A DNA stretch of 64,000 bases, from IMG/VR virus record IMGVR_UViG_3300046517_000890, positions 2,004 to 66,003 of that record. The stretch is one strand, 5' to 3'. This DNA comes from a virus (lineage: Duplodnaviria; Caudoviricetes). Each line of letters opens with the position of its first letter. Position 1 is the stretch's first letter. The notes under the pieces were generated by a model. It saw nothing but the letters and a program-made list of their open reading frames with translations, did no database searches and was not told where the DNA came from. Positions 7,104 to 59,524 of the stretch are shown piece by piece. The position numbers and the translations under genes were made by a program.

Positions 7104-7600
7104 TTGAGGAACACCTTCAACTGGAGGCCGAAGACCGTAGACCGTCGCGCGGGCTCGCTATGCGTGACGAACCTTGGCGGCTTTGGGCCGACGAAGAAGT
7201 TGGCGCCCCAGCCGTCGTGCTCCCAAGTGGCCGTAGGGATGAGCGCCGGCACGACTCGCGTGCCCGTGTCGTAACCGCTCACGAGTCCGGCCGCGCCACC
7301 AAAGTGGAAGTCGCCAGCTTGGAACGGCGTCCAGGAAGGGCCGACGTAACCGCTGTATCGGTAGATGCTGTTCTTGTAGAAGCCACCGATGATCGACAGG
7401 CGATCCACGCTGGTCGGCAGCTCGACCCCGAGCCCGAAGTTGCGCTCGTTATAGTCGGCCGTGCGGTCGGTGTGGTACGAGGTTACGGTGCCGACAAGCC
7501 ACGTTCCGGCGTGTGCAGGCTTGCAGAACGCGAGCCCGAACAGTGAGTAGACAACGATGACCGTCCACCAAAAGACTCGCTGAGCGACATGCACTTTCAT
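7100..7600 (-). CDS. PagP-like outer membrane beta-barrel protein
   Basis: Signal peptide ending AHA; SYH...YNERNFGLG, FYKNS, GLVSGY, alternating beta-strands. Confidence 0.65.
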   Translation of the reverse strand: MKVHVAQRVFWWTVIVVYSLFGLAFCKPAHAGTWLVGTVTSYHTDRTADYNERNFGLGVELPTSVDRLSIIGGFYKNSIYRYSGYVGPSWTPFQAGDFHFGGAAGLVSGYDTGTRVVPALIPTATWEHDGWGANFFVGPKPPRFVTHSEPARRSTVFGLQLKVFLK

Positions 7601-7682
7601 GCTGGCCTCCCATTCGATCGTCCGGCCCGGAGGGCGGACGTTTCGCTGACTGGCATTGGCGACTCCTGATCGCAGTGTCGCC

Positions 7683-7723
7683 TTTATACCATCACGTAAC
7701 GTGCTTTGTCAACACATGTCGTG
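7683..7723 (-). promoter_or_regulatory. Leftward early promoter with two operators
   Basis: Minus strand TTGACA(7712-7707)-18-TATAAA; CACGTAACGTG 7693-7703 and CACATGTCGTG 7713-7723. Confidence 0.75.
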
Positions 7724-7768
7724 TTCTAACCGGGCAAGCGATTGCCGGGAAGTGCTACGCGGTGTTAC

Positions 7769-8224
7769 TTATTTGGCGCGACGCCGCTGGTTGGCTGGCG
7801 TGGGTACCGGGTCTAGCGAATGAAGCCGAGGGCCGGTGCTGCGCTCCAGAGCGACGTTGGCGACAGCCGCCGACTCGATCTTTGAGAGCTGCTCTCTCTG
7901 CTCGTCGGGCTTGAGAAGATCGAAAGCGCGCAGCAGCCGGCGGTGGCCCTCGGTCTCGACATGATACGGCGCCGCCGATTGCTGCGCATGCGGCACGAGA
8001 TCGGTGAGGTCCAGCTCGATGAGCTTGCCGATCTTACGCAAGTCCTCGAACGTGGGCTCGCGCTCGCCGCGCTCGTACATGGAGATGCGGCTCTGTCCCG
8101 CCCAGCCGCAGCGTTCGCTCAGCTCGCGCTGGCTCAGCTTAGCGGCCTTGCGGCCGGCTTCGATGCGTTTCCCGATCTCGGACTTGAGCAGCATCCCAAT
8201 AGGATGCCACCGCTGCCTGGTCAT
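7769..8224 (-). CDS. CI-like XRE HTH repressor (no S24 peptidase domain)
   Basis: IGKRIEAGRKAAKLSQRELSERCGWAGQSRISMYERGEREP; start 8224 or 8194. Confidence 0.88.
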   Translation of the reverse strand: MTRQRWHPIGMLLKSEIGKRIEAGRKAAKLSQRELSERCGWAGQSRISMYERGEREPTFEDLRKIGKLIELDLTDLVPHAQQSAAPYHVETEGHRRLLRAFDLLKPDEQREQLSKIESAAVANVALERSTGPRLHSLDPVPTPANQRRRAK

Positions 8225-49015: not shown

Positions 49016-52000
49016 ATGGGGCGATTCTCGGAGTACGGCTCTCTCATCGATGAAGCCGCCCAGCCGAGTACCGCGCCTGCGCCGCGGTTCTCTGGCGAGC
49101 CGGTTCCCCAGGATGAGCCCACACGCGCTCCCAAGTTCTCTGGCGAGCCCGTCGAGGAGCAGAAGACCAACAGCGACGACGACGCCTCTGTCTCGGCGCG
49201 CGACTACCTATCCAGCCTCGACCAGGGATTCAACACGGCCGGCGCCGACCTCGGTGAGCTGGTGCGCCGCGTGCCGCTTGTGGGCGACAAGCTCAAGCAG
49301 GCCGGGGACGCGCTCGACCGTTCCTTCTTCGGACAGTCACCAGACGAGGCGCTGAAGAACGCCTCGAAGGAGTTCTCGCCCTCCTACCAGGAGTCGCGCG
49401 AGAAGAGCTGGTGGGACTCGAAGGAGAAGTGGTTCGGTCCCGCGTGGACAGACCCCAACAGCTACATCTCCGGGATGCTCGAATCGCTTCCCGAGGAAGC
49501 CATGACCATCGCTCCGGCTATGAAGCTGGCGAAGGGCGCGTTCACGATCGCCCTGGCGAAGACCGGCAGCGAGACGCTCGCTGCGAACGCCGCGGCGCGC
49601 ACGGCCATGATCGTGGGCGGCGCGTCAGAGGGCGCGCTCGCAGGGGCGCAATCGTCGCGCCAGGTCCGCGATGACATCAACGCTCTCCCGGACGACACGC
49701 TGCGTCAGTCCGACGCGGTGAAGAGCCTCATGGATCAGGGCATGTCCTTCGAGGACGCGCGGAAGGAGGTGGCCGACAACGCCGCCACCAAGGCCTTCTT
49801 CCTGGCCGGCGCCACCACGGGCATCTTCAGCGGCCTGGGCGATCGCGCCCTCGCCAAGATCATCATGGGGAACGCAGGCGGCGTCGCCAAGCGCATCATC
49901 AAGGGCGCTGTCGCCGAAGGCGTGCTCGAAGAGTTCCCGCAGAGCTACCTCCAGCAGGTCTCGCAGAACTTCGCGATGCGCGATGTGAAGCCGGACCAAG
50001 ACCTGTTCGATGACGCCCTCAACCAGGGCCTCGCCGGTCTCGCGCTCGGCGCCGTGCAAGGCGGCGCTATGGGTGGGGCGTTCGGTCACCACACCGAGAC
50101 CACCGCCAACAAAGAACCTCTACCCGCCTCCTCGGTCCTCGGGGAGCAGCAATCCCAACCTGCACTGCCGGCACCCAGTATGCCAATGGGTCAGCCCACC
50201 ACGGACTACGAAGCGCAACGCCGCTCCGACGCCGCAGATGCTCACGCCGCCGAGGTGTACGCCGCCCGGGACGCAGAGGAGCAGCGCAGGTCCGAATCCC
50301 CCTTTACTCCAGTCGATCAGCTCTCCGACGAGCAGGCCGCGCGCCAGCGCGAGCACGAGGCGCGCGGAGGCATCAAATCTCTCCTCGCAGACACCGAGGC
50401 GATCTTCGGCGAGATCACCAAGCGCCCGGCCATCCTCGACACGATCGAGAAGGCCGCGCGCGCGCTCCCTGTCGAGCAACAGCAGGATGTGCGCAGCGCG
50501 ATCGACGAGCTGGTGGCCAACCCGAAGGCCATCTGGAAGATGGCCACAGAGCGCCCGCAGGTGCTCAACACGATCACGCAGGCGACCGAGCAGGCCCAGC
50601 GCCTGTACCAGCCCGAGCAGGTGCTCGGCGCCGACCCGCGGGACGCCGCTGACGGCCTGCTCCACTACATGTCCCGCAAGGGCTCCGGGCCTACCAAGAT
50701 CGCCGCCCAGGCCGAGATCGCGCGCCGCGAGGCCGTGCGCTCCGCCGGGCTCAGTGAGAACGACAAGACGCTAGCCCAGAAGATGTTCGGTCGCAAGGAG
50801 CTGACCGAGGACGAGCGCCGCCGCGCGATCGAGATGGGGCTCGGGCGCCAGCGCGTCAACGGCACCTGGGAGCTGACGCCGCAAGCCAAGGAGCTGCGCG
50901 CCCAGCTCCGCGAGGAACGTACCCAGCAAGCGATTGCCCAGAAAGGACAGCCCAGTGACCAAGCCCTCATCGACCGCGTCAACAAAGCCGGTGGATATGA
51001 CTTCCAGGCGGCTGGAGTGCCTGGTACCGCTGATGCGAGCGCGGGACAGGCCATCGCCAAGAGCTTCGGCAAGCGCATCGTCTGGTTCTCCAGCGAGCGC
51101 CCCATCCACGGCGCCAGCTACGGCGGCAACCTCTACGTCAACGTCAACTCCTCCCGGCCGCACCTGACGGTCATCGGGCACGAGCTGCTGCACTCGCTGC
51201 GCGAATCGAACGAGGACATCTACCAGGGGCTGCTCAAGCGGCTCGTGCCGGTGATGAAGGGCGTCGGCGAGTACCGCAACTGGCTCGCGCAGCAGCTCGC
51301 GATCGAGGGCAAGGAGATGTCGCCCGAGGAGCTGGACAACACGTCGCACGAGGAGCTGGTCGCTGACTTCCTCGGCGACCACATGACGAAGCCAGAGTTC
51401 TGGCGCGAGGTGTTCAAGAGCCAGCCGAAGAGCTTCGTCGAGCAAATGCTTGCCCACTTGCGGGCGGCGATCGAGTCGATCCGCACGCGCCTCCAGCAAG
51501 GGCAGGCGCTCGGCTACGGCACCGAGCAGTTCATCGGGAACGCAGAGGCTGTACGCAAAGCGCTCGCCGACGCCTACAACGCCTGGGCCAAAGAGGCTAC
51601 AATCAGCAATGAGGCCACCGATGGATCAATCAGACAATCACGCGCCGGAAGCCCTGGTGAACGAGGAGTTCAAAGCCATGTGGGCGAAGGTGGACGAGGA
51701 GCGCCGGGCGAAGGGCTTGCCGGCAATGAGCGAGCAGGAGCAGGGAGCGCTCGTGCGCGAGGCCCTGGCGCGGAAGGCCGCAGCCCGCTAGACGTAGCGC
51801 GCGCCCTCGCGCCGCACTACAACCCGCAGTTCAAGGTACCCGAGTCCTCGCTCGCCAAACAGGGAGCGATCGGGAAGACCTACGAGGCCGCAGCCGCGGC
51901 GTCCCCCGCATACCAGAAGGCCGTCTTCGCGGCCTACGAGAAGTCGATGCCCGTCGTCCTTGAAGGCGACAGCTACAGCCAGATCGACTCCTACAAGAAG

Positions 52001-55000
52001 CTCATCCAGCGTTCCTACGAGTCGCTCGCGAAAGAAGTAAAGCGCGAGTACGACGAGATCGCCAAAGACATCACGATCGAATACCACTCTGGCGAGCATC
52101 AGTACGCCAGCTCCGACGCTATGCGCGATGACGTGCTGAAGAACAAGCACCTCTGGGTGTACGAGGGCGGAGAGCGGCACGAATTCCTCGGCGATACCGA
52201 CCCCACGACCGGCCGCACCTACAACGAGATGTTCCGCGCGATCCACGACTACTTCGGTCACGTGGTGACGGGTGCCCAGTTCGGCCCGAAGGGCGAGGAG
52301 CAGGCGTGGGCGTCGCACGTGCAGATGATGCCCAAGCTCGCGCGCATCGCCATGACCTCCGAGACGCGCGGACAGAACTCGTTCGTGAACTACTCGCCGA
52401 TCAACATCGAGGTGCTGGAGCGTGTGCGGAAGCTGCGCCGCGACGAAGCGCCACAGAAGGCGATCGACGCCGAGTTCGCCAAGTTCCAGTACGCCAAGCA
52501 GGCGTCAGTCGCGCTGCCGCCGGAGATGCTCGACCCGCGCTACGCGGGCGGGATGCCGGCGTACATGCGCGCCGCGATCGAGCCCACGAACCCGATCGAA
52601 GCGAAGCTCGTCCATTACTCGCCCAAGGGCAACCTCACCGAGACCGACCCGTCCTTCTACGGCACTGGCCTCCGCGGAGAGGAGGCGGATCGCGTCGCTG
52701 GCGGGGCGCTCAAGCGCACCTACTTCTATCTGGAGGGGCAGACCGCCGAGTACGGCGTGGGCGCTAACCGCTACGAGGCGCAAGGCACGAAGCTCTACGA
52801 TCTCTCGAAAGACCCGGAGAACCTGCGCGTCCTGGCCGCTCACTACCACATGGCGACGCCGTGGAGCGTGAACCAGAAGGAAGCCACGAGCGCGATGGAG
52901 CGCCTGATCTACGACCGTGGCTACGACGGCTACACGTCGCCCACCTTCGGCGCCGCGGCGGTGTTCGAGAAGCTGCCGGTCACGAAGGCCCCGGGTGAGC
53001 TGAAGCTCTCGCGCGAGCGTGAGGACGCTGCCGCGCGGGCCGCGATCGACAAGATCATCAACGATCCCAAGTTCCAGGAGGAGCTGAAGGAGCAGGCGTA
53101 CCTGAAGGACTTCCTGAAGAACCTCACCGCCAACGTCGAAGCCAAGGCGGCATACGGGAAGCTGCTCGCGAAGTTCCACAACTGGAAGTGGGACGTGGGC
53201 ACCACGCTGCTGTCGAAGACCACCGGCAAGACCTACAAGATCGCCGATCGCTCTTTCTCGCCGCCGCGCGACAAGTTCTCCACGATGGTGCCGACGTACC
53301 TAGTGCGCGGCTCAGATGGCTCCAGGCAGTTCCTCTCCGAGGCGAGAATGGAAGAGGGCAACGCCTTCGTGCCGCTCACCGGAGAGGAGCCCAAGCTCTC
53401 GCGCGAGCGGGACGTGACGCAAACCCCCGAGTTCAAGCGCTGGTTCGGCGACTCGAAGGTAGTGGACGCCGAAGGCAAGCCGCTGGTGGTGTATCACGGG
53501 ACTCCCCGGGGCGGATTCTCAGAATTCGATGAAAACACGCTAGGAACTACTACCGACGGTGGTTATTATGGGCCAGGATTCTACTTCACCAGCCAACCTG
53601 GAGAAGCCGGTTTCTATGCACAGAAAATGGGTGGTGCCCGCGCGTCTATCTACCCTGCATTCCTGTCTTTGAAAAATCCTTTTGTCGTAAATTTCAGAAC
53701 ACATACCGATGGTTCTGACACGATCACCAGGGCGAAAGCGCTTGGAATAGATATAGGGTTCAGTGGATTCTTCAAGAACGGCCCTGCTGCTCGCGAGATC
53801 ATGGAAAAGGCAGGATACGACGGCGTCCTGGCATTGAGGAGCGATAGAGAGAACACGGAGGCTGTAGCGTTTCGTCCAGAGCAAATCAAATCCGCCATCG
53901 GCAACCGCGGGACGTTCGACGAGAAGTCGCCGAACATCATGCTCTCGCGAGACCGCTCGCTGGATACCGGCATCAAGCTCACGCGCGCCGAGATGGGCGC
54001 GAGCCTCGACCAGTTCGTCTACGGCGACCAGGTGCCGCCGCAGTTCAACACGATCCGCCAGGCGGCAGAGTTCATCGAGGACCGCGCGAAGACTCTGAAC
54101 GGCGACAAGGACCGTTCGGAGTTCAACGACAAGAACGTCGAGGCTGTCGCCAAGATCATGGCGCATGAGGGCCTGCTCGCGGCCAAGCAGTCCGGCAGCT
54201 CGATCGGCTGGTACCGCAAGAACCTGGAGCGCGCTCTGGCCACGGCGGCGCTCCTGCACCCAGAGATCGGCACCGACAAGAACGCGCGCTTTGCCTTCAC
54301 CTACGCGCTCGCCGTCACCTCCAATGGGACCACCGTTCGCGAGAACTCGCGGTACTCCTTCGAGGCCTACCGGAAGTACGTGGACAACGACGGCAAGATG
54401 CCCTTCTACGGGAAGGGCACGCGCGGCCCCGCGATGGCGCAAGCATTCACCGCCTTCAACCGCATGCTGAAGGAGTTCGGCTCGATCGACGAACTACGCG
54501 AGTTCATGCTCTCGAAGCACGACGGTATTACGCTCAAGAAGGCCTTCCCCAAGATCAGGGAGCTGACGAGCGAAGAGGTCTACGGCGGCACGGTCATCGG
54601 CTCGAAGATCGGCGGCGGCTTCCTCCAGAACCTGAACGGCAACTACGACGCTCTCACCATCGACCGCTGGTTCATGCGGACGTGGGGGCGCATGACCGCG
54701 CACCTCACGACCAGAGCTGGTCTGAAGAGCGACACCGGCATCATCGACGCACCGAGCGCCCCGAGCGTGCGCGCGTACATCCGACGCACCGCAGAGCGCG
54801 CTCTCGAACACATGCGCGAGAACGGCAAGCGCGCCGAGATGAGCGACCTCCAAGCCCTCCTCTGGTACCCTGAGAAGGACTTCTACCACATGATGGGGGT
54901 CGCAGATGAAAACTCGAACCCGACGAGCTACCACGAGGAGATCACCAAGTATGTCCAATCCAAAGGAATCGACACTGCCGCAGCAGGCGAGCGCGTACTA

Positions 55001-58000
55001 CCATCCGAGCGAGGACGGGGAGGAAACTCTGGAGATGAACTCGCAGGACGCGAAGCGCCTGGCCGAGTCGTTCAAGAAGAAGCCCGCCCCGAAGAAGTCG
55101 TAGACCAGGCGGCACACGAGGCCGCCACCTCGCCCAAGAACGAGCTGCCCGAGCCCACGCCCGCGCAGAAGGAGGCTGGCAACTACCAGAAGGGTCACGT
55201 CCGCATCGCCGGCCTGGACATCTCGATCGAGAACCCGGCCGGCTCCGAGCGCACCTTCACCAAGCCGAACGGCGAGGAGGGCTCGCGCACGATGCAGAGC
55301 CACTACGGCTACGTCCGCGGCACGGTGAGTGGCGACGGCGAGCACATGGACATCTTCATCAAGCCCGGGACGCTCCCCGACTACGCCGGCCCGATGTTCG
55401 TCATCGACCAGCGCAAGCCCGGCAACGGAGCCTTCGACGAGCACAAGGTCGTCATGGGCTGGCCCACGATGACCGAGGCCAAGGCCGCGTACCAGGAGAA
55501 CTACCAGCGCAACTGGGACGGCATCACCTCGATCTCGCGCTTCGAGAATCCGGCCGCGTTCAAGAGCTGGCTGGAGAGCGGCAACACCGAGAAGCCTGCG
55601 GCAGAGGAGCTGAAGCTCTCGCGCGATCGCGACGGCCGCCCTGGCGAGAGATTCGAGATGCGCCTCGAACTCGCGCGCCAGCAGAACGGTGACTGGATGT
55701 CACCAGACAGCCGCTACGAGGTGGTGCGCGAGCCGGATGGCTACTACGCGAAGGTCGATGGCTCCGAGATCGGGTGGGGGCGAGACTTCCAGCGCGCCAA
55801 GTCCTTCCTCACCGCACGCTTCAACCAGGAGGTCGAGGCCGGCACGATCAAGAACCCGAACGACGCTAAGAGCGTCATCAACCGCTACACGGCTGACCAG
55901 CAGCACGCGGTAGTGGATGTGTGGAAGAAGATCGCAGCGCTCCCGAGCGCCTTCCGCTTCACCCAGACCGACGCCAAGGACGCCAAGCAGATCGCCAAGG
56001 ACATCGGCGCCGATCGCGTGATGACGCGCGTCTACACCGACCCTGCCGACATGAAGGCGGCACCGGAGGGAATCATCTACGTCGATTTCATAGACGGCAA
56101 CGAGGCGGCCATTCACTTCGACAACGTCGATGGTACGGCGCAAGTGGCGGCGCAGGAGATGACGCAGGGCGGATTCGGCGCGCAGCTCTATCAGCTCGCC
56201 CTCGCCTGGGCGCACAACAACAAGTACGTGCTGGTGCCGGACACGAGCCTCACCTACGTGAACACGTTCCGGCGTACCGAGCAGATGATCTCCGCTGCGC
56301 TGCGCTACGGCACAACGAAGTACATGCGCCCGCACCTAGACCAGGGGCTCTACGGCTGGATCAACAAGCCGCAGACGAAGACCGACGAAGAGCACAACCT
56401 GGCGCTGATGCTCCTCTCCTCCTACGAGAACGTGATGGGTGCCGAGGCCGACAAGCGCTCGAAGATCATCGACACGTTGCGTGATCTCCGGTATAATTTC
56501 ACCTCCCAGAAATTCGAGACAGCCGATGGCAAAGTCTTTACCAATCAGGACTGGCGGCAGCTCGCTGAACGTGACCATAAATCCGGTGATACTGGCAACG
56601 GCGTCACGACTCTTCAGAGAGCGGTGCTCACGCAATCCGTTCTCGACGAGTCCAGAAAGCGCAACGGAAAAGGACTGGCCGCACTGGTTCAGGCTGCTCC
56701 GGGGAACGCCATTCTCGATGGCGACCATCCTCTCCGCGGTGTCCTCTACTCCCGACAGCGCGATACTGGAAGCGGGCAGGTGGCTCAGCCCGCAGGCGCT
56801 CCGAAGGGCGGAGCGGTTCTGCGCGCTGCGCTCTCGACGGCACGCGCCGCCACCGCCGCCGTCCGGCCGGTAACGGCCGCGCTCGACCTCGCCAACCGCG
56901 GGGCCGACCTCCTCCTCAAGGTACCCGGCAAGCTCCTGATCGCCCCGGTCACGTCGCGGCTGTACGACCGCGTCGTCGGTCTGGGGCAATGGCTGGCCAA
57001 GAACAGCACGCTCGCCCAAGAGGCGGCGCACGGGCTCATCGCCGACTACGGGCTCCCAGAGCCGTACCTGGATGCCCGTCAGGAGCGCGAGAGCCGCATC
57101 CAGTCCGTCCTGCGCAGCTCCAAGGAGATGATCGACAGGATCGCTTCCCTCGACCGCGCGCAGGCGCGCGTGGCGTACACGTGGATGCAGGAGAAGCCCG
57201 ACACCGACACCGAGAAGCGCCTGCTCGCGCAGCTCCCGCCGGAATCCAGGCAAGCGCTGGCCGGGATGAAGGAGCAGATCGACCAGCTCGGGCAGGAGGC
57301 CGTGAAGCTCGGGCTCCTCTCGAAGGAGTCCTTCGACCGCAACCGCATGGCCTACCTGCACCGGACCTACAAGAAGCACGAGCTGGAGAACCCGGGCCGT
57401 GCCGCCGCCGGCACGCGCGCAAAGTCCATCCGCGCCGACGCCTACCGCGGGCGCGGATTGCGCGATGACGTGGCCGCCTCGCGGCTCCCGGGCGTGCAGC
57501 AGGGCGACAAGTACCTGCGCCTGGAGGACCGCGCGCCCGGCACCGACGGGGGCCTCGGCGCGCTCCAGCGCGTGGTGTACCTGCCCGCCGGCAAACCCGT
57601 GCCGCAGACCTACTCCGGCTGGCGCCAGGATGGCGTCTGGGAGGCGCGCTTCATGGAGAAGCAAGGTCAGGTCGGGATGTGGCGCGACCTCACGCCGGAG
57701 GAGCGCCAGCGCCTCGGGGAGATTGACGAGGTGCGGTACGCCTTCGCGCGCACCATGCTCGCGACCACGCGCGACATCGAGACCGCCCGTTTCCTCAAGT
57801 GGACCTTCGACAACTACGCGAAGACCGAGTCAGAAGTCGAGGAGCTGGGCGGCACGATCGCCGAGGCCGTGGACTCGCTCGTGACGCTCAAGGTCTACGC
57901 CGACAACGAGTGGGTCAAGGTGCCGACGAGCTACGCGCAGGGCACCAAGATTCCCAAGTACGGCGCGCTCGCCGGGGCCCACGTGCCGGGCCACATCTGG

Positions 58001-59524
58001 AACGACATGCGCTCGACCATCAACCTCAAGGCCGACTCCGCCGTCGGGCGCCTATACGACCAGCTCCTGCGCGGGTGGAAGATGAGCAAGACGGCCCTCT
58101 CGCCGGCCGTCCACACGAACAACGTCATGTCCAACTTCGTGCTCGCCGATATGGCCGACGTTCACTTCGAGCACATCCGCAAGGCGCTCAGCGCGATCAT
58201 CGACTCCCAGCGCGGCAACGCCGCTGCGAAGACGCTCATGGAGCGCTACAACTCCTCCGGCGCCGAAGGCTCATCGCACGCCGCGGTAGAGCTGCGCACC
58301 GAGATCATCGAGCCGATGCTGAAGGAGCTTGAGCAGGAGCACGACGAGACGCTCCGCAAGACGGGGATCATGCAGGCGATCGCGCTCGGGCTGCGCGGCA
58401 ACCTGCGCCAGTCCCTCGCCGCGCTGCACGCCTCGAAGGCGGCCCAGGTCGCCACCGCCCCCTTCAAGATCATGGTGGAGGCCTACCGCGAGGAGGACAC
58501 GATCTTCCGCCTGGCGAAGTTCATCAGGGAGACCGAGGCCGGGAAGAGCGACAAGGTCGCCGGCCGAGAGGCGCGCAAGTCGATCCTCGACTACAACATC
58601 AACGCCCCGTGGGTGCAGGCGCTGCGCCGCGGGCCGTTGCCCTTCCTCTCCTTCAGCTACCGCGCGATCCCGATCCTTCTCGACACCGCGGCCCACAAGC
58701 CGTGGAAGATGATGAAGTACTTCGCCGTCGGCTACGCGCTGAACGCGCTCGCCTACGCGATGCTGGGAGGCTCAGGCGACGAGGACAAGGAGCGCAAGCT
58801 CATGCCGGAGGAGAAGTCCGGCCGCTCGCTCGGCGTCTTCTACCGGATGCTGCGCATGCCGTGGAACGACGAGAACGGAGCACCAGTATTCATGGACATT
58901 CGCCGCTGGATTCCGGGCGGCGACATCGTGGACCTGAACGGCTCGCAGGGCGCGATCCCGCTCCCGAGCTGGCTCTCCGTCGGCGGCCCGATCTCACTGG
59001 GCATCGAGATGGCCGCCAACAAGGACATGTTCACCGGCAAGACGATCGTCAAAGACTCCGACGAATACGGAGAGAAGATGGTCAAGATCATGGATCACAT
59101 CGCGAAGTTCATCATGCCGAACGTGCCGATCCCGAACCCGGCAGGCTACGTCGCCGACGAGATGTTCGGCGAGCGCGGACTCTTCCAGACCTACTCGTGG
59201 AAGTCTGTGCTCGGCGCCGGCACCGGGGAGACTGACGCCTTCGGCCGCGAGCGCAACCTCGCGCAGTCTGCCGCATCCGCCGCTGGCGTCAAGATCGGGT
59301 CGCAGCCGGAGGACGTGGCGAAGAGCAATCTCAGGGCGAAGACCGCCTCGGCTCAGCGCGAGATCAGCGAGAACATCTCCGCGCTCCGCCGCGAGCGCCA
59401 CCGCGTGGAGGAGAACCCGGACGCGCAGGAGAATGTGGATGCGCGCATCGCGCGCCAGCGCGAGAAGAGCCGCGCGATCCAGCGCAAGTACTCCGACAAA
59501 ATCGGCCTGGAGCCGAACCCCTAG
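49016..59524 (+). CDS. Giant polyvalent virion protein (3502 aa)
   Basis: Hydrophobic N-terminal region; HELLH metallopeptidase (~51180); FRAIHDYFGH domain; two ART-like domains (VHYS; WFGDSKVV..YHGT..GYDG..EQIKS); TIDRWFMR domain; pyrophosphatase-like (YGY..GT...DGEHMD..FDEHK); GNAT-like; LPD38-like C-terminus. Confidence 0.92.
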   Translation: MGRFSEYGSLIDEAAQPSTAPAPRFSGEPVPQDEPTRAPKFSGEPVEEQKTNSDDDASVSARDYLSSLDQGFNTAGADLGELVRRVPLVGDKLKQAGDALDRSFFGQSPDEALKNASKEFSPSYQESREKSWWDSKEKWFGPAWTDPNSYISGMLESLPEEAMTIAPAMKLAKGAFTIALAKTGSETLAANAAARTAMIVGGASEGALAGAQSSRQVRDDINALPDDTLRQSDAVKSLMDQGMSFEDARKEVADNAATKAFFLAGATTGIFSGLGDRALAKIIMGNAGGVAKRIIKGAVAEGVLEEFPQSYLQQVSQNFAMRDVKPDQDLFDDALNQGLAGLALGAVQGGAMGGAFGHHTETTANKEPLPASSVLGEQQSQPALPAPSMPMGQPTTDYEAQRRSDAADAHAAEVYAARDAEEQRRSESPFTPVDQLSDEQAARQREHEARGGIKSLLADTEAIFGEITKRPAILDTIEKAARALPVEQQQDVRSAIDELVANPKAIWKMATERPQVLNTITQATEQAQRLYQPEQVLGADPRDAADGLLHYMSRKGSGPTKIAAQAEIARREAVRSAGLSENDKTLAQKMFGRKELTEDERRRAIEMGLGRQRVNGTWELTPQAKELRAQLREERTQQAIAQKGQPSDQALIDRVNKAGGYDFQAAGVPGTADASAGQAIAKSFGKRIVWFSSERPIHGASYGGNLYVNVNSSRPHLTVIGHELLHSLRESNEDIYQGLLKRLVPVMKGVGEYRNWLAQQLAIEGKEMSPEELDNTSHEELVADFLGDHMTKPEFWREVFKSQPKSFVEQMLAHLRAAIESIRTRLQQGQALGYGTEQFIGNAEAVRKALADAYNAWAKEATISNEATDGSIRQSRAGSPGERGVQSHVGEGGRGAPGEGLAGNERAGAGSARARGPGAEGRSPLDVARALAPHYNPQFKVPESSLAKQGAIGKTYEAAAAASPAYQKAVFAAYEKSMPVVLEGDSYSQIDSYKKLIQRSYESLAKEVKREYDEIAKDITIEYHSGEHQYASSDAMRDDVLKNKHLWVYEGGERHEFLGDTDPTTGRTYNEMFRAIHDYFGHVVTGAQFGPKGEEQAWASHVQMMPKLARIAMTSETRGQNSFVNYSPINIEVLERVRKLRRDEAPQKAIDAEFAKFQYAKQASVALPPEMLDPRYAGGMPAYMRAAIEPTNPIEAKLVHYSPKGNLTETDPSFYGTGLRGEEADRVAGGALKRTYFYLEGQTAEYGVGANRYEAQGTKLYDLSKDPENLRVLAAHYHMATPWSVNQKEATSAMERLIYDRGYDGYTSPTFGAAAVFEKLPVTKAPGELKLSREREDAAARAAIDKIINDPKFQEELKEQAYLKDFLKNLTANVEAKAAYGKLLAKFHNWKWDVGTTLLSKTTGKTYKIADRSFSPPRDKFSTMVPTYLVRGSDGSRQFLSEARMEEGNAFVPLTGEEPKLSRERDVTQTPEFKRWFGDSKVVDAEGKPLVVYHGTPRGGFSEFDENTLGTTTDGGYYGPGFYFTSQPGEAGFYAQKMGGARASIYPAFLSLKNPFVVNFRTHTDGSDTITRAKALGIDIGFSGFFKNGPAAREIMEKAGYDGVLALRSDRENTEAVAFRPEQIKSAIGNRGTFDEKSPNIMLSRDRSLDTGIKLTRAEMGASLDQFVYGDQVPPQFNTIRQAAEFIEDRAKTLNGDKDRSEFNDKNVEAVAKIMAHEGLLAAKQSGSSIGWYRKNLERALATAALLHPEIGTDKNARFAFTYALAVTSNGTTVRENSRYSFEAYRKYVDNDGKMPFYGKGTRGPAMAQAFTAFNRMLKEFGSIDELREFMLSKHDGITLKKAFPKIRELTSEEVYGGTVIGSKIGGGFLQNLNGNYDALTIDRWFMRTWGRMTAHLTTRAGLKSDTGIIDAPSAPSVRAYIRRTAERALEHMRENGKRAEMSDLQALLWYPEKDFYHMMGVADENSNPTSYHEEITKYVQSKGIDTAAAGERVLPSERGRGGNSGDELAGREAPGRVVQEEARPEEVVDQAAHEAATSPKNELPEPTPAQKEAGNYQKGHVRIAGLDISIENPAGSERTFTKPNGEEGSRTMQSHYGYVRGTVSGDGEHMDIFIKPGTLPDYAGPMFVIDQRKPGNGAFDEHKVVMGWPTMTEAKAAYQENYQRNWDGITSISRFENPAAFKSWLESGNTEKPAAEELKLSRDRDGRPGERFEMRLELARQQNGDWMSPDSRYEVVREPDGYYAKVDGSEIGWGRDFQRAKSFLTARFNQEVEAGTIKNPNDAKSVINRYTADQQHAVVDVWKKIAALPSAFRFTQTDAKDAKQIAKDIGADRVMTRVYTDPADMKAAPEGIIYVDFIDGNEAAIHFDNVDGTAQVAAQEMTQGGFGAQLYQLALAWAHNNKYVLVPDTSLTYVNTFRRTEQMISAALRYGTTKYMRPHLDQGLYGWINKPQTKTDEEHNLALMLLSSYENVMGAEADKRSKIIDTLRDLRYNFTSQKFETADGKVFTNQDWRQLAERDHKSGDTGNGVTTLQRAVLTQSVLDESRKRNGKGLAALVQAAPGNAILDGDHPLRGVLYSRQRDTGSGQVAQPAGAPKGGAVLRAALSTARAATAAVRPVTAALDLANRGADLLLKVPGKLLIAPVTSRLYDRVVGLGQWLAKNSTLAQEAAHGLIADYGLPEPYLDARQERESRIQSVLRSSKEMIDRIASLDRAQARVAYTWMQEKPDTDTEKRLLAQLPPESRQALAGMKEQIDQLGQEAVKLGLLSKESFDRNRMAYLHRTYKKHELENPGRAAAGTRAKSIRADAYRGRGLRDDVAASRLPGVQQGDKYLRLEDRAPGTDGGLGALQRVVYLPAGKPVPQTYSGWRQDGVWEARFMEKQGQVGMWRDLTPEERQRLGEIDEVRYAFARTMLATTRDIETARFLKWTFDNYAKTESEVEELGGTIAEAVDSLVTLKVYADNEWVKVPTSYAQGTKIPKYGALAGAHVPGHIWNDMRSTINLKADSAVGRLYDQLLRGWKMSKTALSPAVHTNNVMSNFVLADMADVHFEHIRKALSAIIDSQRGNAAAKTLMERYNSSGAEGSSHAAVELRTEIIEPMLKELEQEHDETLRKTGIMQAIALGLRGNLRQSLAALHASKAAQVATAPFKIMVEAYREEDTIFRLAKFIRETEAGKSDKVAGREARKSILDYNINAPWVQALRRGPLPFLSFSYRAIPILLDTAAHKPWKMMKYFAVGYALNALAYAMLGGSGDEDKERKLMPEEKSGRSLGVFYRMLRMPWNDENGAPVFMDIRRWIPGGDIVDLNGSQGAIPLPSWLSVGGPISLGIEMAANKDMFTGKTIVKDSDEYGEKMVKIMDHIAKFIMPNVPIPNPAGYVADEMFGERGLFQTYSWKSVLGAGTGETDAFGRERNLAQSAASAAGVKIGSQPEDVAKSNLRAKTASAQREISENISALRRERHRVEENPDAQENVDARIARQREKSRAIQRKYSDKIGLEPNP
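51621..51791 (+). CDS. Nested +1-frame ORF 1 (56 aa, helical)
   Basis: TACAAT 51598, GAGG RBS, MDQSDNHAPEALVNEEFKAMWAKVDEERRAKGLPAMSEQEQGALVREALARKAAAR; G/C-ending codons in this frame. Confidence 0.65.
   Translation: MDQSDNHAPEALVNEEFKAMWAKVDEERRAKGLPAMSEQEQGALVREALARKAAAR
52997..55626 (+). repeat. Dispersed junction repeat (GAGCTG)AAGCTCTCGCGCGA encoding KLSR(E/D)R
   Basis: 20-nt identity 52997-53016 vs 55607-55626; 17-nt identity 53003-53019 vs 53393-53409; degenerate copy ~53939. Confidence 0.8.
54951..55103 (+). CDS. Nested +1-frame ORF 2 (50 aa)
   Basis: GAGGAG RBS, MSNPKESTLPQQASAYYHPSEDGEETLEMNSQDAKRLAESFKKKPAPKKS; native codon usage in this frame. Confidence 0.62.
   Translation: MSNPKESTLPQQASAYYHPSEDGEETLEMNSQDAKRLAESFKKKPAPKKS
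56469..56497 (+). promoter_or_regulatory. Intragenic sigma70-like promoter with operator-like palindrome
   Basis: TCGACA-17-TATAAT; CACGTTGCGTG 56473-56483. Confidence 0.55.
56526..56873 (+). CDS. Nested +1-frame ORF 3 (115 aa)
   Basis: MAKSLPIRTGGSSLNVTINPVILATASRLFRE...WPHWFRLLRG...; downstream of intragenic promoter; host frame loses codon bias here; weak RBS. Confidence 0.45.
   Translation: MAKSLPIRTGGSSLNVTINPVILATASRLFRERCSRNPFSTSPESATEKDWPHWFRLLRGTPFSMATILSAVSSTPDSAILEAGRWLSPQALRRAERFCALRSRRHAPPPPPSGR

Follow-up and report, generated by a model that had tools for sequence, protein, structure and literature searches.

Two short open reading frames (ORFs), ORF1 and ORF2, hidden in the +1 frame of a giant phage gene are, as judged from sequence homology, the first and second half of a single small gene (s) of ~93 codons, which a later insertion of modules would have cut in two. 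The giant gene encodes the polyvalent protein P0001 and lies in IMGVR_UViG_3300046517_000890, a complete virus record with direct terminal repeats, of which the window (the whole stretch of DNA that was analyzed) covers 64,000 of 66,003 bases. The origin of ORF1 and ORF2 as a split s is, by itself, highly probable. The fuller reading favored here, in which s was split in this manner and the halves, at least ORF1, are still under selection in their own frame, is given a probability of about 0.55. The reading frame of the giant gene is referred to as the host frame, and the features on which the argument depends are listed below, P0067 being a relative of s.

49016..59524, + strand: giant polyvalent gene (host frame), P0001, 3502 aa, from ORF calling
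51611..51614, + strand: GAGG, ribosome-binding-site-like, 6 nt before the ATG at 51621, read from the sequence
51621..51791, + strand: ORF1, the 5' half of the small gene, +1 frame, 56 codons and a TAG, from homology and codon score
51783..54983, + strand: inserted module block of ~3201 nt, bounded by the end and the restart of homology to P0067
54951..55103, + strand: ORF2, the 3' half of the small gene, +1 frame, 50 codons and a TAG, from homology and codon score

The s family consists of four JGI hypothetical proteins (P0067, P0069, P0070, and P0071) of 92–93 aa, with 82–86% identity to P0067. A HMMER search with ORF1 against 1.84 billion representative proteins matched P0067 (93 aa) with an E-value of 1.9e-12 and 62% identity, residues 1–52 aligning to residues 1–52, and the sole other match was to an unrelated repeat protein. 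By tblastn, 32 of 51 residues of ORF1 are identical to P0067 without a gap, and ORF2 aligns to P0067 residues 58–92 with 19 of 36 identical (E about 2e-9 to 7e-9 in a one-subject search, and up to 3.7e-7 against a local DNA set). When P0067 was searched against the whole 66-kb genome, exactly two matches were returned, residues 1–54 at 51621–51782 (E 1.1e-17) and residues 56–92 at 54984–55097 (E 3.4e-7); the halves lie 3.2 kb apart, and no intact copy of s was found in the genome by this search. The Met of ORF1 at 51621 aligns with residue 1 of P0067, and ORF2 ends in ...KKPAPKKS and a stop, aligned with the P0067 end ...KKPAPKKQ. Past residue 54, ORF1 runs through two new codons to its stop, whilst the first 11 codons of ORF2, including the ATG, come from the inserted block, and only from ~54984 onward does ORF2 correspond to the 3' part of s, ancestral stop included. 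The ATG of ORF2 is therefore not ancestral. Neither ORF is the continuous frame of 92–93 codons that characterizes the P0067 family, and both are fragments rather than members of it.

The breakpoints of s coincide with module boundaries that are seen independently. Homologues of the first inserted module in other proteins start at P0001 residues 919–924, and homology to the InPase module starts at residue 2029, the codon that overlaps the s stop (TAG, 55101–55103); the InPase homologues include free-standing ones that start with 'M.VD.AAHEAATSP'. The inserted block spans roughly host residues 923–1989, is in frame with the host on both sides, and contains an unnamed domain (about 925–1335), an ART-PolyVal domain, and a domain with the motif TIDRWFMR.

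Other interpretations of the same bases were tried and rejected. That the +1 stretch is the C-terminal tail of the upstream gene read out of frame was discarded, as no homologue of the peptidase module continues with a +1 peptide. A weak similarity between P0061 and the long +1 reading (E 0.026 after correction, 0.002 before) appeared to be due to composition, and a supposed duplication of s codons 34–51 at both ends of the insert was given up because the profile alignment breaks cleanly at residues 54/56.

A first-pass annotation of the window, made from the sequence alone, had reported that the G/C-ending codon bias of the genome is lost at three places in the giant gene, where the +1 frame holds ATG-started ORFs (ORF1, ORF2, and a third, ORF3), and that at two of these places the giant frame becomes G/R/A-rich filler. 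The filler peptides are present as quoted, and so are the upstream signals that it named, which are GAGG and TACAAT (51598–51603) for ORF1, GAGGAG (54935–54940, 10 nt before the ATG at 54951) for ORF2, and TCGACA-17-TATAAT for ORF3. The loss of codon bias was borne out strongly at the first two sites and less so at the third. Over the whole giant gene the G+C content at codon positions 1/2/3 is 0.64/0.45/0.86, and the third-position value (GC3) in the host frame collapses to 0.38–0.40 at 51566–51865, with a first-position value of up to 0.93, and to 0.40–0.42 at 54926–55165, whilst the dip at 56516–56905 is weaker (0.57–0.72). There is also a fourth dip, absent from the first-pass annotation, at 53456–53815, where all three positions are at ~0.47.

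The frames were then compared in 50-codon windows using a codon log-likelihood table trained on nine other genes of the phage. The +1 frame outscores the host frame at 51551–51835 (peak +37 per 50 codons) and at 54926–55165 (peak +30), and in the rest of the giant gene it exceeds the host frame trivially, by 0.3 and 1.3, so that the sliding window supports two of the three sites and not the third. In control windows from the nine other genes, the +1 frame was above the true frame in none of 432 cases (maximum −0.9). In the +1 frame, the per-codon scores of ORF1 and ORF2 are −3.73 and −3.71, compared with a mean of −3.66 (sd 0.16) for true frames, which agrees with the native codon usage claimed for them earlier; read in the host frame, these bases score −4.40 and −4.42, much as wrong frames do (mean −4.66, sd 0.22). 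The G+C content at s codon positions 1/2/3 is 0.75/0.43/0.84 in ORF1 and 0.54/0.42/0.86 in ORF2. Ten ATG-started ORFs of at least 45 aa occur in the other + strand frames of the giant gene, and only ORF1 and ORF2 rise above the host frame. Over these two, both frames are open and the inner frame carries the coding signature, as in dual coding.

The nearest relative of P0001 is P0002, a protein of 3277 aa with 68% identity overall that is known as a protein sequence alone. The host-frame linkers of P0001 are also present in P0002, which is without P0001 residues 1336–1636 (the ART module). The P0002 protein was back-translated with every codon choice, and the best attainable +1 match to P0067 was determined at every offset. 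For the N-terminal half, 41 of 51 P0067 residues are attainable at aa 920 (mean 10.1, sd 3.0, next best 21 anywhere along P0002), and for the C-terminal half 29 of 35 at aa 1694 (next best 17); the attainable match ends at the same residue as in this phage, and the equivalent positions could accommodate an ATG and a stop. The same procedure returned nothing for P0041 and P0009. On back-translation, the closest relative thus shows the split at the same breakpoints, which would make the split older than the divergence of the two phages. Between P0001 and P0002 there are no indels within the 60 codons of linker 1, and P0002 has a 15-residue insertion (residues about 902–916) just upstream of the s start, outside ORF1. 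At the DNA level, positions 51200–52200 had no match in phage or plasmid collections, scans of viral contigs for close relatives returned distant loci or nothing, and in metagenome and genome contigs no locus exceeded 64% identity or carried these linkers.

From these observations we infer that s was nested in the giant gene before the insertion. It would have occupied the +1 frame of the linker that joins the HELLH peptidase module to the InPase module, the giant frame reading it one base out of register and so producing G/R/A-rich filler. Host position 1 is s position 3, which is G or C in 84–86% of codons, and as stop codons begin with T, few host-frame stops occur over s. The ~3.2 kb module block would later have entered between s codons 54 and 56, in frame for both readings, leaving ORF1 with the ancestral ribosome-binding site, ATG, and predicted helical hairpin, and ORF2 with the tail and the ancestral stop behind a new ATG inside the insert. 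Since the inserted modules are in register with the host frame at both ends, translation in that frame would already have passed through s when they arrived. A TGA at 51610–51612 in the third frame overlaps the GAGG, and a one-base shift would bring it in frame with the upstream module; it may be the former stop of an upstream gene, and thereby a trace of an older single-indel fusion across s. The s linker is not universal, as in P0106 (100 aa) the end of the peptidase module is joined to the start of InPase through ~15 residues, without the s region.

The continued selection on the halves is argued chiefly from codon usage. The third host position over both halves is still at 0.42–0.43 G+C, compared with 0.86 genome-wide, although the split appears to predate the divergence from the 68%-identical P0002. 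This intact native codon usage argues for the peptides still being made, and the remaining tests are neutral. Given host positions 1 and 2, 37 matches to P0067 are permitted in ORF1 and 32 of them are realized, so host position 3 is conserved there. Additionally, amongst 674 windows compared between P0001 and P0002, the 12 largest residuals in favor of +1 preservation all fall at aa 875–908 (z 3.0–4.5). ORF1 also retains residues 1–54 of s and with them the helical hairpin predicted for P0067. ORF1 is therefore judged to be probably still made as a small helical protein, whilst this is less certain for ORF2.

Several observations, however, weigh against that judgment, and most of them suit an alternative with the same origin in which the halves are dead relics, their bases kept as host-frame linkers and their codon signature not yet decayed. 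The gene has been cut in two, which usually kills the protein. ORF2 is without the ancestral start, its ribosome-binding site is 10 nt distant, and it is more diverged than ORF1 (19 of 36 residues identical to P0067), with 20 of 35 attainable matches to P0067 compared with 29 of 35 in P0002. Replacements at host positions 1:2 number 23:14 in the linkers and 315:211 elsewhere (Fisher p 0.86), and by this ratio s-silent changes are not in excess in the linkers. The open host frame proves nothing in so G+C-rich a phage, since with the s peptides fixed and synonymous codons drawn from the usage of the gene it would be open by chance with a probability of 0.25 over ORF1 and 0.41 over ORF2. The residual test drew on few poorly conserved control windows, and gaps barred its use on linker 2; the +1 conservation in P0002 is an upper bound obtained by back-translation of a protein rather than a measurement on DNA. 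In the JGI data, members of the P0067 family are annotated as genes in their own right on at least seven contigs, which fits free-standing s genes better than nested ones. No family, fold, or partner assigns a role to either half. Against the halves being relics stand the undecayed third position despite a split at least as old as the P0002 divergence, the realized matches and clustered residuals in ORF1, and the indel-free linker 1. Decay without function is accordingly a somewhat doubtful explanation, and that at least ORF1 remains under selection is preferred.

The first-pass annotation had instead proposed three independent genes overprinted on the linkers, each the cognate inhibitor or chaperone of the domain just upstream, so that each effector module would travel with its antidote. 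Every ORF does come after a domain, and ORF1 and ORF2 do have native codon usage and Shine-Dalgarno-like sequences. They are, however, residues 1–54 and 56–92 of one gene, and the adjacency of ORF2 to the TIDRWFMR domain stems only from the insertion of the module block. A search with P0001 residues 640–1300 returned 66 proteins including the query, amongst which module order and content are shuffled, and in none of the 65 homologues, compared as main-frame proteins, are the peptides present in frame, which disagrees with small genes that travel with their modules. Nothing links s to an antidote or inhibitor role. It had no Pfam or PHROG match at cut-off, a PDB sequence search returned 0 hits, and the best score in the ESM Atlas (0.75) is a lead only; AlphaFold2 on P0067 predicted helices at residues 9–30 and 38–57 with pLDDT 81–90 (model mean 67.8), and co-folding of the HELLH module (residues 640–866) with ORF1 scored 0.00, below the mark at which an answer is given. 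No copy of s was found in GenBank phages, nor in one Burkholderiales genome and 400 scored genomes of its class. The third ORF, and a promoter-like site close to it, are as follows.

56469..56497, + strand: promoter-like site TCGACA-17-TATAAT inside the giant gene, 11/12 match to the sigma-70 consensus
56526..56873, + strand: ORF3, a chance ORF, +1 frame, 115 codons, wrong-frame-like score

ORF3 had been called the weaker of the three, and it carries no coding signature, with −4.24 per codon in the +1 frame and −4.02 in the host frame. The domain before it is LPD37 by Pfam, the host frame across it has 69% identity to P0002 (142 aligned positions), and ORF3 itself had no family match in Pfam or PHROG searches. 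It is a chance ORF. One promoter-like site was found in the 10.5 kb of the giant gene against 1.0 expected from shuffles, which is no excess; the site lies within a stretch of 0.56 G+C. What survives of the overprinting proposal is that ORF1 and ORF2 are gene-derived coding sequence within linkers, and a set of three cognate partner genes is very improbable.

A compensated frameshift, in which assembly error or mutation displaced the host-frame protein by two indels, would likewise give a wrong-frame signature flanked by a right-frame one. It is slightly less probable still, as the same host-frame filler is found in P0002 from a separate data set, both +1 stretches terminate in stops, the peptides are in frame in 0 of the 65 homologous giant proteins, and the sole relatives found are proteins of 92–93 aa with the same start Met. 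Logan contigs of run X1 cover 51300–53107 and 53231–55400 without differences, although X1, possibly being the source sample, is not independent. In X1, the one run listed for this uncultured phage and one not recorded as RNA, the linkers are free of variants. Chance is a further candidate explanation in a gene so rich in G+C and with linkers of low complexity. Alternative-frame ORFs abound here (104 of at least 40 aa within 14 kb), and chance does account for ORF3; for ORF1 and ORF2 it is refuted, the +1 advantage being reached in 0 of 432 control windows and ORF1 having a database match at 1.9e-12.

The general idea of hidden +1 genes in the linkers of giant phage genes found support elsewhere, in another nested gene that is conserved in seven phages. 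A frame scan of other loci picked out a relative, a 65.2-kb soil phage genome (G001), whose giant ORF of 4072 codons has two +1 stretches that score above the host frame. One of these is an intact gene, here called N121.

L002 531-896 (= L023 about 7573-7990; G001): N121, an intact +1 gene of 121 codons with an ATG start, directly after the InPase module

A tblastn search with N121 matched eight GenBank records that represent six phages (Klebsiella phage ZX1, Pseudomonas phage Skulduggery, Serratia phage Parlo, Ruegeria phage 45A6, and two Vibrio phages), with 29–44% identity over 98–100% of the query. The homologues lie at 1501–1890 of the extracted loci (L024–L029), inside giant genes of the DarB-like or PLxRFG type, and in all six loci the match is +1 to the annotated giant coding sequence (CDS), which is the sole annotated feature there; N121 itself is unannotated in all of them. 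Over 3.3 kb of these loci the CDS frame has 0 stops and the N121 frame 25–47. All copies open with an ATG at the aligned position, are provided with a Shine-Dalgarno-like sequence, and close with a stop. The gene is about 120 codons long in the Ruegeria phage and 121 in the soil phage, whilst the other five cultured phages have 129–131. The gene is conserved from a Vibrio phage of 46% G+C to the soil phage of 67% G+C, and it is the sole +1 segment common to distant giant genes.

Differences at nested codon positions 1/2/3 amount to 0.24/0.22/0.44 between Parlo and ZX1 and 0.34/0.22/0.47 between Parlo and Skulduggery. Position 2 is the least changed, and thus the third position of the host frame is the most conserved. 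Identity in the nested frame exceeds that in the host frame over the same bases in nine of ten pairs, with one tie. Given N121, the probability that the host frame is open by chance is 0.0018, 0.0094, and 0.0080 in three phages, and in the Vibrio phage of 46% G+C it was open in 0 of 5000 trials. As the nested gene is conserved and the openness of the host frame is not due to chance, both frames are kept, and on this comparative evidence N121 is a case of true dual coding in giant genes. N121 belongs to no Pfam or PHROG family, had no Atlas match, and had no PDB relative at a meaningful E-value; its single-sequence model has a pLDDT of 60.6, which is too low to support a fold search.

The second +1 stretch in the giant gene of G001 (L023 5567-5749) has native codon usage and 60 codons from its ATG, ending in ...KKKPRPSS and a stop. 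It had no match in GenBank phages, and a kinship with the tail of s, suggested by likeness to the eye, was rejected for want of BLAST support.

N121 and s share their setting, each occupying the +1 frame of a linker that follows directly on a module, with filler in the overlying host frame; over N121 this filler is G/R/D/P/E-rich in G001 and G/R/S/D/E-rich in the copies as a group. Unlike s, N121 is intact and belongs to a different family without similarity to s, and the window has no copy of it. It is a plausible, if still tentative, proposal that concealed +1 genes, conserved and so far unannotated, are a general feature of linkers in giant injected phage proteins. They would arise by a frame slip that fuses neighboring genes over a small one, the fusion being read one base upstream of the small gene's own frame. 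The small gene would stay functional inside the fusion, and its product would act alongside the giant protein, for instance during folding, packaging, or ejection. If this is true, the window represents the next step, in which a nested gene was cut by a further module insertion and both pieces were kept. Independently of this proposal, the present case shows that in giant polyvalent genes, which are annotated as single ORFs, part of the low-complexity linker sequence is another gene read out of frame. It also suggests a mechanism by which giant genes grow, through read-through in a frame open by chance and then module insertion. N121 is a missed gene and a clean dual-coding case in cultured phages, and one sequence suffices to detect such genes when the other frames of giant phage genes are scanned for the native codon signature.

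Viruses are well known for overlapping genes and overprinting, and in viral overprinting the newer frame is disordered. In the spanins, the small Rz1 gene is wholly embedded in Rz on the same strand, in the +1 frame and with a start codon of its own. The arrangement described here resembles Rz1/Rz in that a small +1-frame gene lies inside a larger one on the same strand, but here the enclosing sequence encodes a disordered linker within a giant virion protein, and the small gene is the older frame and has been cut in two. The embedded Rz1-in-Rz class is mentioned in the paper on phage JC1 (PMC9144972), the passages of which on DarB-like and embedded genes report embedding for Rz1 in Rz only. 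In viral overprinting the ancestral frame is reported to keep the codon usage of the genome (PMC8227390, PMC3494269), and likewise s, with its native codon usage, is the older frame and the overlaid frame is filler of odd composition; unlike that case, the new frame here is an extension that welds modules of an existing gene, and no new gene is formed. Polymorphic toxin and immunity cassettes also have modular effectors that recombine, but no immunity-like gene follows each module here, and two of the ORFs are a single gene, which matched no defense or immunity family in Pfam or PHROG. What is new is the site, the direction, in which an older small gene was overrun by the extension of a host gene, and the split that came afterwards. 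In the literature searched, no mention was found of nested genes in polyvalent or DarB-like linkers.

The giant gene itself belongs with the polyvalent proteins that Iyer et al. (2017; PMC5512222) described from phages and conjugative elements, and a term search of the main text of that paper found no description of hidden linker genes. Several unrelated enzymatic and LPD domains lie within its one very large polypeptide of 3502 aa, where Pfam recognizes ART-PolyVal at residues 1484–1634 (E 1.8e-28), InPase at 2050–2186 (E 5.8e-45), and LPD37 at 2301–2544 (E 2.1e-31); like the polyvalent proteins of that study, it combines such domains with modules that are shuffled amongst its 65 homologues. 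The genes adjoining it match families of internal virion proteins, virion structural proteins, and DNA transfer proteins. With these domains and neighbors, P0001 is therefore a polyvalent virion protein that is probably ejected.

The core of the ART-PolyVal module coincides with the fourth GC3 dip (53456–53815, G+C ~0.47 at all three codon positions), and the module looks like a recent gain from a donor with less G+C. The motif [LFY]SR[DEAQ]R occurs five times in P0001 at module boundaries (residues 1331, 1461, 1643, 2201, and 2578), compared with 0.04 expected per shuffle of the protein (2000 shuffles, maximum 2). It is found three times each in P0002 and P0010 and at least once in 7 of the 66 giant proteins, P0001 counted, and its occurrences are candidate processing sites for the HELLH peptidase.

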